A stretch of DNA of 54,626 bases from Nitrospirota bacterium (GTDB taxonomy: Bacteria > Nitrospirota > Thermodesulfovibrionia > Thermodesulfovibrionales > Dissulfurispiraceae): contig JAJZPZ010000001.1 in the NCBI GenBank assembly GCA_021847795.1, forward strand, positions 1 through 54,626. Reading direction: 5' to 3'. Shown here piece after piece: positions 8,590 through 44,030 of the stretch. The position numbers were made by a program, and so were the translations under genes. The notes under the pieces were generated by a model. It made no database searches. It was not told where the DNA came from and saw only the letters and a program-made list of their open reading frames with translations. Numbering within the stretch: the stretch's first letter is position 1; every line of letters begins with the position of its first letter.

Positions 8590-9990
8590 CTATAACGCAT
8601 TTACAATGCCCTTCACCAAGGCATCTATTTCAGTATCTCTTATTGTCCTTGTATCTATCAGGAGGGCATTATCTTTAATCCGTGCCACTATGGGCGGGGT
8701 ACCTCGCCGTAATCTCTCTTCCAGCGCGTTGACGGAAATACGCGCAGGCCTGATTGCAACCACATAGGTTGTAAATTCTATTTCAGGGAGCGCCCCCCCG
8801 CCTGACTGGGACGAATCTTCGAGAATGTCTATTCTTGCACTTCCGGTAAATGCCGGGCCAAGCTTCTTCCTGAGCCGCGATACGATCCTCCCGGCCCTTT
8901 CCTTTATTTTTCCCGGATCCTGCAGGAGCATGTTTAGAGTAGGAATTTTCTCTTTTGCCTTATCTTCATCAAGATAACACCTAAGGACCGCTTCAAAGGC
9001 AGCAAGTGTCATTTTATCTACCCTGACTGCACGCATAAGAGGATTTTTAGCTATTTTTTCAATAAGTTCCGCCTTGCCAATAATCACTCCGCCCTGGGGG
9101 CCTCCCAGGAGTTTGTCCCCGCTAAAGGTCACAATATCTGCGCCCGCCCTTACGGTTTCCTGCACTGTGGGTTCAATATGGATTCCATAGGGCTTGAGAT
9201 CTATAAGGCTGCCGCTCCCGAGATCGAACATTACCGGGATGCCCCTTTTCCTGCCAAGGGCAACCAACTCATTAACGGAGACCGCACTGGTAAATCCAAC
9301 CATCCGGTAATTCGACTGATGCACTTTCAATAAAAGGGCAGTGTTCTCATTGATCGCCGCTTCGTAATCACGAACATGGGTCTTGTTCGTAGCCCCTACT
9401 TCCCGGAGGAGAGCGCCGCTGCTGCTCATGACATCGGGTATCCTGAAAGAGCCGCCGATCTCCACAAGCTCTCCACGGGAAACAACAACCTCCCTGCTTT
9501 TTGCAAGCGCGGTCAGGCAGACAAAGACCGCTGCTGCATTGTTATTCACAATGAGGCTGTCTTCAGCGCCTGTTATTTCAGTGAGAAGCTTCCGGACATG
9601 GGAGTACCTTTTCCCCCTCCTGCCCTCCTCAACCTCGTATTCAAGATTGGAATAGCTGCAGGCGGTTTTCCTGACGTTTTCCATGATTTCTTCTGATAAG
9701 ACCGATCGCCCCAGGTTTGTGTGGATCACAATCCCCGTGGCATTGATAACAGGCTTCAGGTTGAATTCCAGGGCTTTTTCCATATGCCTCTGAATATCTG
9801 AAATGATTTCCTCAAGGGAGAGTTCACCGAGGTCGCCTTTCAGGATCGCCTGCCTTCCCTGATCAATCACTTCCCTTATTGCTTTGAGGAGAGAGCGCCG
9901 GGGATATACCGTCTGCCACTGAAGGCCTTTATCGGATTTCAGAATTTCATCAACTGACGGCAGTGAGGCCAAAAGCTGCTGTTTATCCAT
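8590..9990 (-). CDS. selA: L-seryl-tRNA(Sec) selenium transferase
   Basis: LPSVDEILK N-terminus, VINATGIVIHTNLGRS, NNNAAAV, and FSGDKLLGGPQGG (PLP lysine). I prefer the start at ATG 9990 (GGAG 9 nt upstream); the ORF track TTG is at 10005. Confidence 0.9.
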   Translation of the reverse strand: MDKQQLLASLPSVDEILKSDKGLQWQTVYPRRSLLKAIREVIDQGRQAILKGDLGELSLEEIISDIQRHMEKALEFNLKPVINATGIVIHTNLGRSVLSEEIMENVRKTACSYSNLEYEVEEGRRGKRYSHVRKLLTEITGAEDSLIVNNNAAAVFVCLTALAKSREVVVSRGELVEIGGSFRIPDVMSSSGALLREVGATNKTHVRDYEAAINENTALLLKVHQSNYRMVGFTSAVSVNELVALGRKRGIPVMFDLGSGSLIDLKPYGIHIEPTVQETVRAGADIVTFSGDKLLGGPQGGVIIGKAELIEKIAKNPLMRAVRVDKMTLAAFEAVLRCYLDEDKAKEKIPTLNMLLQDPGKIKERAGRIVSRLRKKLGPAFTGSARIDILEDSSQSGGGALPEIEFTTYVVAIRPARISVNALEERLRRGTPPIVARIKDNALLIDTRTIRDTEIDALVKGIVNAL

Positions 9991-10222
9991 TTCCCCTTGC
10001 TCCAATGTACCCGGACAGCGTATTTACCGGCCCTGTGTTTACTTATACAGAAATGTATAAGCCATGCTTGCCGGATATTCACCGGTTTTTTTATTTTACT
10101 CTTTCAGGCAAAGGCTTTTCAAAGGCAACAGGTTTGTATTATTATACATGCTCTGTCAATTTCAGATTTAAGATTTCTGATTGCAGATTGAATCACCAAT
10201 CATAAAACTACTTGGAGGTCGT

Positions 10223-35067: not shown

Positions 35068-36717
35068 TTATTTTTCGAGATGATAGTAGGCCGGCAGTGC
35101 CGTGAGCCGCGCGTCGTCCGATGGTCCCCCGACAGTAAAATGATAAAGGTCCTGGTATGCGTTATCGGCGAACCCCAGCAGCTGATGCACCAGGTCATCA
35201 AAAAAACACCCGATGCCGGCGCCCCTCAGGGAATGGGCCTCTGCCTCAAGATAGAGGACCTGCCCGATCATTCCGGCTGCCCAGTGGAGTGTGCGGTACC
35301 GGTAGGGGCGGCTTTCAACGATATCCCTGAATTTCGCAATCATTGCCACTGCAAAGGCGCTGTCTCCGGCAATATCCTGGCCACAGCTCACACGCTCCGC
35401 AGTTTCCCTGAAGTCACCCTGCTGCAGAAGGTAGAGGGGCAGGGCGCCGGGGCCGCCTTTGACCCGCTCCCAGAGAAAATCATCCCGGCATTCCCTCCTG
35501 ATATTCTCAAAGTCGTCCTCATCGCGGAGCAGGAAATAAATCCCGGGCCCTATGCCGCCGACCCGGTGAACAAAAAGAAGGAGATGAATGCAGACCTCCT
35601 CCAGCCCTGCATCAAAAGGCGCCGAGCCGTTCCTCGGCACCGTCTTGTCGAGCAGGGCAAGGAACGCGTCTTTTGCTATGGGAGTCTTCCCATCATAATG
35701 CTGCGCGCTCCTCCGCCGGCGGATGATCTGCGCTGCCTGCTTTCCGGGGATCTCCTTTTCAGCATATTCCTGCACATTGTACCTGTACCGGGCTTCATCG
35801 GTCTTTGGTTTCAGTGTGGCCTGTGCTGTCTCGCTGATTAGCTCCCAATCCACATGATCACTGCTCAGCCGGTTCGGCCGGCCCTCGAAGACAAGGGAAG
35901 AAAAAGAGCGGATGATCTCTGAAGGCACATCGCACGGCGCCGGGCCGCTCGTATTGCTGTGGATGAAGAGCAGGAGTTCAGGGTGCTCTTTTTCAAAGGG
36001 CTGCCAGACGGTTTTCCGGAACCCGAGAACTGTTTCAATATCCTGATAGGAAAGGGCATTGAGATAAACAGCCTTCCATCCCAGCAGGTTCGCGGAAAAA
36101 CTCATGCATGCAACTGCATGGCCGAGATCATGGTTGCAGTAGCGGAAGGCGCGCTCACCGTACTTCCATGCCTCTTTCCAATAGATACTGCTCAGCCCTA
36201 CTAGAAATCCCTCTGTTCCAAAGTGCCCGCGGAGTCTTTCCCGGAGCATATCGTCAAATGCCGCCCTCGGCTCCAATGCATGAAAAAAGGGGTTATAGTG
36301 AAACACTCCTCCCGGGTGAGCGCCTTCAGCAAAAAACGGAAGAATGAGATACGCCTCTGTGGGGTGGAGATTGCCGCTGGAGGGATTTATCCTGAGCGCC
36401 CATTTGCCCCCGAGAAAACGCTTCCAGGTGGAAAGCCCCAGGGAAAGCTCCAGGAATGCAGCGACATTTTGCAGGGAAAAAGACCGGGGGATGTTCCGGG
36501 CACGCTCGTATAAGGAGAAATAATTTGCTTCAGGGTCTTCCTTAAGAAAAGGCAGGCGGACAGGGACCGTACCGTCGTATCTTCTGAAGGGGTCGGGGGC
36601 ACTTTCCCAATCGAGGTATCCGGGCGCGCGGGCATAGCGGCCGGGGCGATGCTTTGTCTCCTCGTGGTACTGTATAACTTTCAGCGCAGCCCCTGTTCTC
36701 TCTGAGACCCCTTTCAT
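35068..36717 (-). CDS. SagB/ThcOx-type dehydrogenase, double nitroreductase-fold protein
   Basis: 549 aa. N-terminal VIQYHEETKHRPGRYARAPGYLDWESAPDPF is typical of SagB-type proteins. There are two nitroreductase-like halves (PSSGNLHP, RRRRSAQHY). Confidence 0.8.
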   Translation of the reverse strand: MKGVSERTGAALKVIQYHEETKHRPGRYARAPGYLDWESAPDPFRRYDGTVPVRLPFLKEDPEANYFSLYERARNIPRSFSLQNVAAFLELSLGLSTWKRFLGGKWALRINPSSGNLHPTEAYLILPFFAEGAHPGGVFHYNPFFHALEPRAAFDDMLRERLRGHFGTEGFLVGLSSIYWKEAWKYGERAFRYCNHDLGHAVACMSFSANLLGWKAVYLNALSYQDIETVLGFRKTVWQPFEKEHPELLLFIHSNTSGPAPCDVPSEIIRSFSSLVFEGRPNRLSSDHVDWELISETAQATLKPKTDEARYRYNVQEYAEKEIPGKQAAQIIRRRRSAQHYDGKTPIAKDAFLALLDKTVPRNGSAPFDAGLEEVCIHLLLFVHRVGGIGPGIYFLLRDEDDFENIRRECRDDFLWERVKGGPGALPLYLLQQGDFRETAERVSCGQDIAGDSAFAVAMIAKFRDIVESRPYRYRTLHWAAGMIGQVLYLEAEAHSLRGAGIGCFFDDLVHQLLGFADNAYQDLYHFTVGGPSDDARLTALPAYYHLEK

Positions 36718-40506: not shown

Positions 40507-40673
40507 GTGGAAGGAAGGTACGTCTCAAAGTCTTTCGGAAATGCGATGAAATTATTTAGAAGGCCTGTTTTTCTGTTCCATGGACAGGTGGTGCTGTAAT
40601 GGCCTTTATAGGGCGGGAGGGGTCGGCACAAGGAATCGCTTCCGAAAGACTTTGATCCATACCTTCCATCCAC
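40507..40673. other. 167-nt element: roughly 40-bp imperfect inverted-repeat arms enclosing 87 nt (structured RNA or MITE-like)
   Basis: Left arm 40507-40547 and right arm 40635-40673 are complementary over about 35 of 41 positions, including a perfect 16-bp core tcaaagtctttcggaa / ttccgaaagactttga. It lies in the 390-nt gap between the YkgJ-type gene stop and the pat start. Confidence 0.6.
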
Positions 40674-40736: not shown

Positions 40737-41270
40737 TCACCCGGCGGAGCGGAGGCTCTTGAAAAAATCTCCGAGCATTTCGCTTCTGAGGTCCATAACC
40801 TCTTCAAAGCGTTTCACAAACTCGCGATAAGGCCTTGCAGGACCTTCCTCTATGTTGTTGAGCAGGGCATTGCAGAAATGCCAGTTGCACCGGAAGGGCC
40901 TCACCGCACGTTCAATCGTACAGCCCTGTCGGGATATGAATTGGCAGGAGTCCGTATCAAGAACGCCCTCTTTGTAGCGCGGCGGCTTCGCCCCGAGGCT
41001 GAAGATATAGATCAGGTCCTCGAAATCATAATAGCCGTGCTTATTTATGCAGCACACGCTTTCGCAACGGGGACATACAACCGCGGTGTTAACCTGGATA
41101 AACGCATCAACGGCATCGATGCCGAATTTTACGATGCGCGCCTTTTCTCCGACAGGGGCAAGCTCAGCCCTGCTTTCTTCGAAAAAACGCTCCATAAGAT
41201 GCACGGCCCTGTCCCACTTCTCCCTGTCGTGCCATGAGAGTTCATAATTCAGCAACTGCAACAGCTTCAT
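40737..41270 (-). CDS. YkgJ/UPF0153-type cysteine-cluster protein (putative Zn/Fe-chelating domain)
   Basis: 177 aa. CPRCESVCC (CxxCxxCC), then SCQFISRQGCTIERAVRPFRCNWHFC. Confidence 0.75.
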   Translation of the reverse strand: MKLLQLLNYELSWHDREKWDRAVHLMERFFEESRAELAPVGEKARIVKFGIDAVDAFIQVNTAVVCPRCESVCCINKHGYYDFEDLIYIFSLGAKPPRYKEGVLDTDSCQFISRQGCTIERAVRPFRCNWHFCNALLNNIEEGPARPYREFVKRFEEVMDLRSEMLGDFFKSLRSAG

Positions 41271-41341
41271 ATCAGTATGTTATATTAAAGCATTCTGTTT
41301 AGCCAATATCCGGCCGGCAATCCGGTAAGTACGGGTGGGCG

Positions 41342-41509
41342 ATGAAATGTAAACTGTGTAACGGAACGCTTAAACTACTCTTCGGCTGAAAGTCGGTCAT
41401 ACTGCGCTGCATGGAATGCGGCAGGGACTTCAGGATCTCGGAATATCTTGATGAGATCGACGACGACACATGGAATCTCATATCACAAAGGCCGAGTAAT
41501 CGCGCGTAA
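41342..41509 (+). CDS. Candidate small selenoprotein: 55-codon zinc-ribbon ORF with in-frame TGA at 41387-41389
   Basis: MKCKLCNGTLKLLFG-[TGA]-KSVILRCMECGRDFRISEYLDEIDDDTWNLISQRPSNRA-TAA. The CxxC pairs sit on both sides of the TGA. A hairpin starts immediately 3' of the TGA. selA is in the window. The ORF ends 30 nt before the next gene on the same strand. Confidence 0.45.
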
Positions 41510-41538
41510 AAATCCTCTTCACAAGGAGTTCAGAGAGA

Positions 41539-42117
41539 ATGGATAAATATCTGCAAAGGATCGGGGAAATCTTCAAAGCCATTGACAGCATATACGATGC
41601 CGCACTGAACCATTACCGCTTCAGCTGCAAAGGATGCGCCGACAACTGCTGTGTGACAAAATTCGATCATCACACCCTTATCGAGGAACTGTTCCTTGCA
41701 GAAGGGCTCAGGGAACTCGACGCCGCCGGGAAAAAAGCTGCCGTCTCCCACGCAGAGGAGGTGGTGAAGGTCCATAATACCTCTCCTGAAGATGTCCGGG
41801 TAATGTGCCCGCTTAACGAAAACGGGCTCTGCACTGTCTATGAGCATCGCCCCATGATCTGCAGGATCCACGGCGTGCCCTACGAGATGCATAAAAGAGA
41901 TATGTCTATCGAGTACGGGATCGGATGCCACAGGTTCATGTCCGAGATGCTGAGCGAAGACCTGAAATACTTTCCCCTGAACCGGACCATGTTCTACGTC
42001 GAGATGGCGCGGCTCGAAAAAGAGGTGAGAGAGAAGCTCAACTATACCGGCGAGTACAGCAAGACCACTGCCGAGATGGTCCTGAGTATTTTGAAGGAGA
42101 ATCAAACCGAAAACTAA
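41539..42117 (+). CDS. YkgJ/UPF0153-type cysteine-cluster protein
   Basis: 192 aa. CKGCADNCC, then MCPLNENGLCTVYEHRPMICRIHGVP. The antisense ORF 41530-42105 has no motifs. Confidence 0.75.
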   Translation: MDKYLQRIGEIFKAIDSIYDAALNHYRFSCKGCADNCCVTKFDHHTLIEELFLAEGLRELDAAGKKAAVSHAEEVVKVHNTSPEDVRVMCPLNENGLCTVYEHRPMICRIHGVPYEMHKRDMSIEYGIGCHRFMSEMLSEDLKYFPLNRTMFYVEMARLEKEVREKLNYTGEYSKTTAEMVLSILKENQTEN

Positions 42118-42142: not shown

Positions 42143-42316
42143 ATGCTGTCTGCTGCAGGAATAAAAAGAGCTTTGCGGCAACACCTTAGTGAGCTTATGA
42201 AATCAAAACAACACCTGTATTTTCGTAGGGACCAGCACAGCTATTCAAGGGGACAGAAGATAGAGAATTTTTTTGTTGCATTGTAAAGCTCTTTTTATTC
42301 CTGCAGCAGACAGCAT
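42143..42316. repeat. Perfect 32-bp inverted repeat flanking a 110-nt spacer (174 nt in total)
   Basis: 42143-42174 atgctgtctgctgcaggaataaaaagagcttt is the exact reverse complement of 42285-42316. It is intergenic between the YkgJ-type gene and the NYN gene. Confidence 0.95.
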
Positions 42317-43359: not shown

Positions 43360-43677
43360 ATGGTCATTATCGAGACCCCGATATTCACAAAACGAATTCA
43401 GGAGCTAATATCTGCTGAGGGATATCGGCTTTTCCAGGCTCATTTGATCAATAGACCGAATGGAGGGAAAGTAATATCGGGGAGCGGTGGGCTAAGAAAG
43501 CTCCGGTGGTCAGCCGGTGGGCATGGAAAGAGCGGCGGGATTAGGGTTATTTATTATTGGTTCGTATCAAAAGACGTTATTCTTCTCCTGTATGCTTACC
43601 CAAAGAGTGAGCAGGGAGATTTGACGACAGACCAGCTCAGGCAACTGAAGAAGATTATAGAAAAGGAGTATTTATGA
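43360..43677 (+). CDS. higB: Type II toxin, HigB-2 / RelE superfamily
   Basis: ETPIFTKRIQELISAEGYRLFQAHLINRPNGGKVISGSGGLRKLRWSAGGHGKSGGIRVIYYW closely parallels Vibrio HigB-2 (EYRLFQ, GTGGLRK, GKRGG, IYY). The toxin gene comes first, as in hig loci. Confidence 0.85.
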   Translation: MVIIETPIFTKRIQELISAEGYRLFQAHLINRPNGGKVISGSGGLRKLRWSAGGHGKSGGIRVIYYWFVSKDVILLLYAYPKSEQGDLTTDQLRQLKKIIEKEYL

Positions 43678-44030
43678 AAAAAGAACTGTTTGAAGAGTTA
43701 CTTGAAAGCGTTAAACAGGGAGCTGCTATTATGAAAGGCAAAATGAAACCTTCGCGTAGCATAGAGGTTCCTGAATCTGAGGTGAGGAAAATACGTGAAC
43801 AATACGGCTTATCTCAAAATAAATTTGCTGCTCTTATGGGAATAAGTGTTGCTACACTGCGCAATTGGGAGCAGGGACGACGGAAACCTGAGGGGCCATC
43901 ACGTATACTGCTGAAGGTTGCTGCAGAACATCCGGAAGCCATCCTGGATGTAACAAGGCCTCGAAGAATCAAAAAGCCCGGCATAACGAAGCGCCCCACC
44001 GGATCGCGGCTTGCCAGTCGCTCCCGGTGA
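43674..44030 (+). CDS. higA: HigA-2 type antitoxin (XRE-family HTH)
   Basis: ATGA overlap with the toxin stop. IREQYGLSQNKFAALMGISVATLRNWEQGRRKP is the HTH motif. Confidence 0.85.
   Translation: MKKELFEELLESVKQGAAIMKGKMKPSRSIEVPESEVRKIREQYGLSQNKFAALMGISVATLRNWEQGRRKPEGPSRILLKVAAEHPEAILDVTRPRRIKKPGITKRPTGSRLASRSR

Follow-up and report, generated by a model that had tools for sequence, protein, structure and literature searches.

Rdx/SelW-like and thioredoxin-fold small selenoproteins carry their selenocysteine (Sec) in CxxU or UxxC redox motifs. At the RNA level, the SECIS element of the Escherichia coli fdhF type is a hairpin within the coding region that follows soon after the UGA and has a G at the start of its apical loop.

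The family closest to the gene studied here is OS_HP3. It was predicted computationally by Zhang and Gladyshev in 2007 from two TGA-containing ORFs in the metagenomes of Olavius symbionts (PMC1976440), and a 2026 review lists it as a predicted selenoprotein family with the motif 'RxU' (PMC13188914). Our literature search found no experimental work on this family, and the predictions in that literature are computational. In NCBIfam, the family is catalogued as the equivalog NF041197, 'dual CXXC motif small (seleno)protein'.

Here, we analyze a stretch of Nitrospirota DNA of 54,626 nucleotides (hereafter, the window) that holds a short gene with an in-frame UGA. Judged by its sequence, this gene is a new, unannotated member of the already catalogued family NF041197 (OS_HP3), whose status as a selenoprotein family is also catalogued. 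As in other members, its predicted product is ~55 residues long and has two CXXC motifs separated by 16 residues, an invariant Sec/Cys in the interval and, past the motifs, an acidic helical tail; a hairpin lies 3' of the UGA. It differs from the Desulfobulbales-type core of the family in having G-U-[KR] rather than R-x-C-R at the Sec/Cys site, and in having a tail of its own.

Results

The plus strand of the window at 41342-41509 reads MKCKLCNGTLKLLFG-UGA-KSVILRCMECGRDF…NRA-TAA, from the ATG at 41342 to the terminal TAA at 41507-41509. Its plain translation is MKCKLCNGTLKLLFG*KSVILRCMECGRDFRISEYLDEIDDDTWNLISQRPSNRA*, and with Sec at the internal stop the conceptual product is MKCKLCNGTLKLLFGUKSVILRCMECGRDFRISEYLDEIDDDTWNLISQRPSNRA. 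A preliminary description of this DNA had given the peptide and the positions of the start, the TGA (41387-41389) and the stop, all of which were exact. It had also remarked that the pattern C3-x2-C6-x16-C23-x2-C26 is complete only if the TGA is read through, and our translation agrees. The gene is missed by standard calling, again as described, because of its in-frame UGA: a mechanical ORF list has just the 32-residue tail that starts at ATG 41411 (41411-41509). On a comparative basis, we conclude that 41342-41509 is very probably a genuine gene for a 55-residue selenoprotein, with Sec insertion predicted at the UGA (Table 1). This was the central claim of the preliminary description, an overlooked gene in which UGA means Sec, and it is upheld by the retention of both halves in one frame, a Sec/Cys column, a hairpin that is kept and selA on the same contig.

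Table 1. Features of the window that bear on the predicted selenoprotein gene.
Feature	Coordinates	Strand	Basis
Predicted dual-CXXC small selenoprotein gene, 55 residues	41342..41509 (including stop)	+	Homologues of same length and frame, 48 distinct sequences; NF041197 score
In-frame UGA, codon 16, inferred Sec codon	41387..41389	+	TGA/Cys column across homologues
SECIS-like hairpin GCUGCAU-GGA-AUGCGGC, 7 bp, GGA triloop (main register)	41406..41422	+	Fold energy, family pairing, codon constraint
Alternative register CUGCGC/GCG(G)CAG, one bulge, 10-nt loop (41402-41407/41418-41424)	41402..41424	+	Proposed in the preliminary description
selA, L-seryl-tRNA(Sec) selenium transferase	8590..10005	-	TIGR00474 equivalog 619.3 bits, cut-off 267.9
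YkgJ-family Cys-cluster protein, 192 aa	41539..42117	+	PF03692 CxxCxxCC 27.9 bits, cut-off 23
Divergent Cys-cluster protein, 177 aa	40737..41270	-	C-x2-C-x3-CC … RPFRC motif, possibly distant YkgJ-like

Membership in NF041197 is indicated by the score of the product, which is 57.0 bits with Cys at residue 16 and 47.4 bits with X there, at a curated cut-off of 40 bits. The alignment covers profile positions 1-52 of 53 and runs across the UGA. Three divergent Sec-type homologues score 43.9-50.1 bits. The preliminary description had tentatively mentioned an annotation category of small dual-CxxC (seleno)proteins; it was right, and the category is this NCBIfam entry. A profile search returned 140 family members, which fall into two groups. 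Members of the Desulfobulbales-type group have 56 residues; their Sec/Cys site reads R-x-C-R, and their tail has the form …HEVADQLD…IIYD. The window's group, of the Nitrospirota/Thermodesulfovibrionales type, has 55 residues, G-[U/C]-[KR] at the site and the tail SEYIDEID…RPxNR[AV]; most of the genes found in the window's clade have the Sec form. In public records of metagenome-assembled genomes (MAGs), genes of this group appear only as C-terminal 'hypothetical protein' pieces of 35-38 residues (L004; P0148 and P0174, both of 37 residues) or with the UGA translated as Trp (L072/P0080).

The Desulfobulbales-type genes have a setting of their own. In four loci (L071 and L073-L075), the Cys-form gene lies within ~110 nt 3' of a gene for a phosphoribosyltransferase-domain protein of 183-187 aa, with an overlap in one locus. 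A PilZ gene follows the Cys-form gene in at least three of the four, and the whole block is flanked by glmS and hflX. This arrangement is conserved and is unrelated to the YkgJ context described below.

Homologous loci came from two sets. In the first, the neighborhoods of YkgJ homologues in species-representative genomes were searched by tblastn with the conceptual product, which gave nine loci. All nine have a 55-codon homologue immediately upstream of the YkgJ homologue, interrupted by a stop at the same codon, which is always TGA. The second set, from a metagenome scan with an alignment of close products (A3), added 45 loci. Codon 16 is TGA in 48 distinct homologous nucleotide sequences from Nitrospirota MAGs and metagenomes, and TGC in one more (L051). 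The 48 TGA-type homologues have 45-72% amino acid identity to the window product, and every one has 55 codons in a single frame. Among full-length homologues in protein databases, the residue-16 column holds Cys in 58 of 58. The preliminary description had proposed a search for homologues with either Cys or TGA at the aligned site, and both forms are thus found. Across the 59-member family alignment, no columns are invariant apart from M1, the four CXXC cysteines, the Sec/Cys site and D40. One distant match (P0072, E 4e-4) has Arg at the Sec/Cys position.

Both sides of the UGA look like coding sequence. Among Sec-type homologues, the entropies at codon positions 1, 2 and 3 are 1.13, 0.80 and 1.57 over codons 2-15, and 0.76, 0.62 and 1.39 over codons 17-55. 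This excess of third-position variation on either side is of the coding type. Cys3 and Cys6, which lie 5' of the UGA, are kept among homologues. In many homologues, codon 24, the sole internal ATG in the window gene, encodes T, V, L, K, R or S instead; there is therefore no conserved internal start. Conservation of only one half of the frame had been named beforehand as an outcome that would speak against a selenoprotein; what the homologous loci keep is both sides of the UGA, in one frame.

We scanned 1.84 billion representative proteins exhaustively with HMMER and obtained full-length matches with Cys at the aligned site (for example, P0053, P0060 and P0075); Cys-form homologues are unbroken ORFs of 55-56 residues. 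The scan also yielded C-terminal pieces of 32-38 residues that begin past the TGA; public gene calls of this sort are P0061, P0065, P0067, P0069 and P0148. Two database gene calls have Trp at residue 16 (P0056 and P0080). A word-indexed protein search with the 55-aa product gave no match.

Downstream of the UGA, the RNA can fold into a hairpin (41406-41412 paired with 41416-41422) whose stem begins 17 nt past the UGA and covers codons R22-C23-M24-E25-C26-G27. In the window sequence, this main register has a free energy of -9.1 kcal/mol and pair probabilities of 0.74-0.98. The alternative register, with which it is mutually exclusive, has -6.8 kcal/mol and pair probabilities of at most 0.19. 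Within a gapless alignment of 46 Sec-form sequences (A4), the main register is paired in 89.8% of cells, and partners slid by one to three columns are paired in 50% or less. Neither the pairing nor the covariation seen in this alignment was reached in any of 500 shuffles. The closing pair of the main hairpin in A4 is CG in 14 sequences, UA in nine, GC in three, UG in three and AU in one, with a mismatch in 16. The alternative register is paired in 85.5% of family cells, with GC to UA exchanges, and is the predicted fold in two clades (of L024 type and L057 type). Family pairing does not separate the two overlapping stem registers. The preliminary description had drawn the alternative register on top of a lower stem, AAGUC with GACUU (41390-41394 with 41426-41430). 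Both pairings can indeed be drawn, but the proposed register is less stable than the main one in the window sequence, and the lower stem, paired in just 52% of family cells, was dropped. A lower extension of the main hairpin did no better than shuffles and was also dropped.

Because the hairpin is built of conserved codons, we tested its synonymous sites. Within the hairpin, the Cys codons stand at 47:1 (Cys26) and 41:7 (Cys23) for TGC; 5' of the UGA, the corresponding ratios are 33:15 (Cys3) and 19:28 (Cys6). Arg22 is CGC in 33 of the 33 sequences that have Arg there, and Arg50 and Arg54 are mostly AGR. Synonymous recoding of codons 17-32 raised the folding energy, with a mean z of -1.62 over 48 sequences (30 of them below -1), compared with a mean z of -0.26 for a control region. 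The fold of the window sequence alone is unexceptional (z = -0.64; recoding z -0.45), so the significance of the hairpin comes from the comparison of homologues and not from the single-sequence fold. Among three independent Cys-form genes, the hairpin is mostly or wholly lost in two, and six of its seven pairs are kept in the third (L051). Protein constraint explains part of the conservation, because much of the stem consists of conserved Cys, Arg and Gly codons.

Rfam contained no SECIS family that matched, either at gathering thresholds over the whole window or at E values up to 10 over 41200-41650, and RNAalifold on the 46 sequences gave a consensus of just four pairs. The apical loop lies 23 nt from the UGA in the main register and 18 nt in the alternative one, with G residues at the loop start. 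We take these spacings and the loop G to be within the criteria of bSECISearch and to fit a bacterial SECIS. A hairpin lacking conservation was another outcome that the preliminary description had set against its own proposal; we find a suitably placed hairpin that is kept, with constrained synonymous sites.

The presence of selA in the window, as previously noted, is supported by a match to TIGR00474 far above the cut-off and is evidence that the organism makes Sec-tRNA(Sec). A scan of 20 large ORFs in the 54.6-kb window gave no selB and no selD; selC was not seen there either, the sole tRNA being a tRNA-Leu. TGA terminates four of 22 ordinary, well-supported window genes, accC and comF among them, as well as 13 of the 48 homologues of the small gene itself. 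As TGA is thus a normal stop elsewhere, UGA has not been reassigned.

The gene just 3' of the small gene, on the same strand, is of the YkgJ/UPF0153 family, as the preliminary description stated; the gap is 29 nt (41510-41538), where 30 had been given. Its 192-aa product has 52 homologues, which carry the name 'YkgJ family cysteine cluster protein', and the named organisms are mostly Nitrospirota or Thermodesulfovibrionales (for example, Dissulfurispira). The YkgJ gene is probably co-transcribed with the small gene, as suggested by the short intergenic distances: it lies 7-29 nt downstream in most loci. Among 43 loci with enough downstream sequence, it is next after the small gene in 16. The commonest downstream neighbor is a NYN/YacP gene (19 of 33 loci), which moves up where the YkgJ gene is absent. 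There are also YkgJ homologues, with 58-62% identity, that have no small gene beside them.

On the other side, 20 of 39 loci have the 177-aa gene upstream. This gene had been called a second YkgJ-type gene. It does have the collinear motif C-x2-C-x3-CC … RPxxC, and its Cys residues are invariant among 11 homologues, but it has no Pfam or NCBIfam match, PF03692 is found in none of the 11 homologues, and the hhalign alignment with YkgJ is weak (probability 3%, E 0.013). A YkgJ-type identity is plausible, with the shared collinear Cys motif as its sole support. We also considered a relationship between this protein and the DUF3786 protein encoded upstream of Cys-form genes, which was ruled out (E 0.5).

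Where both flanks could be read (34 loci), both the 177-aa and YkgJ genes are present in 13 loci, the 177-aa gene only in three, the YkgJ gene only in one and neither in 17. The triad of YkgJ, ribbon and YkgJ that had been proposed is therefore lineage-specific: it is conserved within one lineage but does not define the family. One clade of Cys-form genes has DUF3786 and radical-SAM genes as neighbors, and no neighbor is common to all clades, which have YkgJ/NYN, DUF3786/radical SAM or phosphoribosyltransferase-domain/PilZ contexts. A literature search for selenoproteins together with YkgJ returned nothing, and YkgJ alone gave incidental mentions only.

The surroundings of the cluster have further features. 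A perfect 32-nt inverted repeat lies just past the YkgJ gene (42143-42316; arms 42143-42174 and 42285-42316, 110 nt apart), with no other copy in the window. It looks like a window-specific insertion, because the spacer between the YkgJ and NYN genes is 291 nt here and about 50-90 nt in several related loci, and it is possibly MITE-like. A second inverted repeat (40507-40673), with 34-nt arms that are 88% complementary and 99 nt apart, lies within the spacer of 390 nt that follows the 3' end of the 177-aa gene. The two repeats bracket the three-gene cluster, and their arms look unrelated in sequence. Farther downstream, at 43360-44030, genes for a RelE-like toxin (PF06296) and an HTH/MqsA-like antitoxin lie between the NYN/YacP and PAP2 genes; unlike in the window, PAP2 directly follows NYN in related loci. 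On the minus strand at 35068-36717, the window encodes a 549-aa protein with a SagB-family peptide dehydrogenase domain (TIGR03605 86.9 bits, cut-off 78.4). This gene adjoins a short-chain dehydrogenase gene and two GNAT genes, a possible peptide-maturation context.

The fold was modelled with AlphaFold2 on the closest natural Cys homologue (P0053) and an alignment of 58 sequences. The model has a mean pLDDT of 70 and predicts strands at residues 9-14, 19-23 and 29-31, followed by short helices. Residue 16 is placed in the turn between strands 9-14 and 19-23, at the end of the hairpin opposite both CXXC knuckles. The top Foldseek matches in the PDB are zinc-ribbon proteins (ZifS, RNA polymerase zinc ribbons and eIF2-beta), all of them weak, with E values of 0.17 or worse. 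A PDB sequence search gave nothing significant, the best match being HypA (E 0.0066).

Discussion

The comparative data allow several readings of the UGA to be weighed. If the TGA were a true stop, the locus would hold a 15-codon mini-ORF, for a leader or regulatory peptide, followed by an untranslated remainder or by a separate 32-residue peptide from ATG 41411. That is what annotation would suggest, given that the standard ORF list offers only the 32-aa frame at 41411-41509, that public homologue calls are C-terminal pieces of 32-38 aa and that Rfam has no SECIS match. Yet Met is not kept at codon 24, the first 15 codons retain Cys3 and Cys6 and vary as coding sequence in frame with the downstream part, the Cys-form homologues are uninterrupted over 55-56 residues, and NF041197 aligns over the UGA. 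We consider true termination highly improbable. Translation of the UGA as a standard amino acid, through near-cognate insertion of Trp or Cys or through a lineage-specific reassignment, also seems very unlikely. The two database calls with W are in its favor, as is the fact that the Sec status of the family is a computational prediction, but the DNA of the one W call that can be checked (P0080, locus L072) has TGA and was translated under another genetic code. TGA also ends window genes and homologues of the small gene, the only sense codon ever found at the site encodes Cys, the hallmark partner of Sec, and selA is present together with a constrained hairpin at SECIS distance. A Cys-type dual-CXXC gene in decay as a pseudogene, or misread in sequencing or assembly, would need just one base change (TGC to TGA), and the window does come from a metagenome assembly, on a contig of 191.5 kb. 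However, the same TGA is shared by 48 distinct sequences, which come from a large number of independent samples and assemblers, an identical gene is present in an independent Logan assembly (L002), and purifying selection acts on either side of the TGA, with no frameshifts or extra stops. The comparative data effectively refute this explanation, to which we give almost no weight.

A different question is what Sec16 does if the product is a selenoprotein. Sec16 might join the four Cys residues in ligating a metal or Fe-S center, of a five-ligand or rubredoxin-like type, which would make the protein a metal chaperone or an electron carrier and not a thiol/selenol-exchange protein. In favor of this, the Sec/Cys position is as invariant as the four cysteines, the flanking genes encode Cys-cluster proteins for which Zn or Fe chelation is predicted (PF03692), and the structural model that bears on the question is of moderate confidence. 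The second knuckle of the product is CxxCG, as in rubredoxin-type knuckles. Against such a role, the model puts residue 16 between the six-residue strand 9-14 and the five-residue strand 19-23, opposite the knuckles, while the C-x2-C-x16-C-x2-C spacing and the weak zinc-ribbon fold matches fit a four-ligand site. We regard ligation by Sec16 as unlikely, though it deserves more weight than any of the readings that deny the Sec.

With a selenoprotein as the favored reading, the following mechanism can be proposed. The hairpin at 41406-41422, 17 nt past the UGA and with a G-rich apical loop, would recruit SelB and Sec-tRNA(Sec), and Sec would be placed as residue 16 in lieu of termination at 41387-41389, as in the standard bacterial Sec pathway. 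Cys3, Cys6, Cys23 and Cys26 would make up both knuckles of a zinc ribbon with a single bound metal ion, as the Cys pattern and a model of moderate confidence suggest. Strands 9-14 and 19-23 would make a beta-hairpin with Sec/Cys16 at its tip turn, away from the metal site; an acidic helical tail with RPxNRA at its end would come next. The one exposed selenol could serve as a nucleophile in thiol/selenol exchange, or in the transfer of sulfur, selenium or a metal, with a partner protein. As no resolving Cys is nearby, the selenol would act intermolecularly or as a carrier. We infer that the small protein is likely a zinc-ribbon scaffold whose one displayed selenol would serve in redox reactions or chalcogen transfer.

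In the Thermodesulfovibrionales-like lineage, the co-located YkgJ-type Cys-cluster proteins would be the most likely partners, and a functional link within the triad is a hypothesis. More specifically, the small selenoprotein could be a dedicated selenol partner of both flanking Cys-cluster proteins, the three together forming an undescribed redox or metal/sulfur-handling module. We hold this proposal to be speculative and rather improbable. If true, it would give a first functional handle on both the OS_HP3 and the UPF0153/YkgJ families.

Our findings are mainly of value as an annotation correction and as a larger set of Sec-form sequences; nothing in them overturns current knowledge. The ~50 Sec-form sequences gathered here enlarge a family that was first defined from two. 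Orthologues are miscalled in public Nitrospirota MAG records, and the selenoproteomes of the phylum are therefore undercounted.

The locus can also be placed beside other known systems. Like the SECIS of E. coli fdhF, the hairpin is intragenic, lies shortly 3' of the UGA and has a G at the loop start; unlike it, the hairpin has no evident bulged U, and its stem is made of the codons of the second CXXC. The predicted protein resembles classical zinc ribbons (Rpb9/TFIIS type, eIF2-beta and ZifS TTHA0897) in having two CXXC knuckles around a beta-hairpin. It differs from them in the fifth Cys/Sec at the hairpin tip, and, with E values above 0.1 for all fold matches, it is assigned to no specific family among them. 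With Rdx/SelW-like and thioredoxin-fold selenoproteins, it shares a small size, a single Sec, Cys orthologues and a presumed redox role. In contrast to those proteins, its Sec lies outside any CxxU or UxxC, without a nearby resolving Cys, and in a predicted zinc ribbon. To present a selenol by one invariant Sec, placed outside any CxxU on the tip of a predicted zinc-ribbon hairpin, would be unusual.
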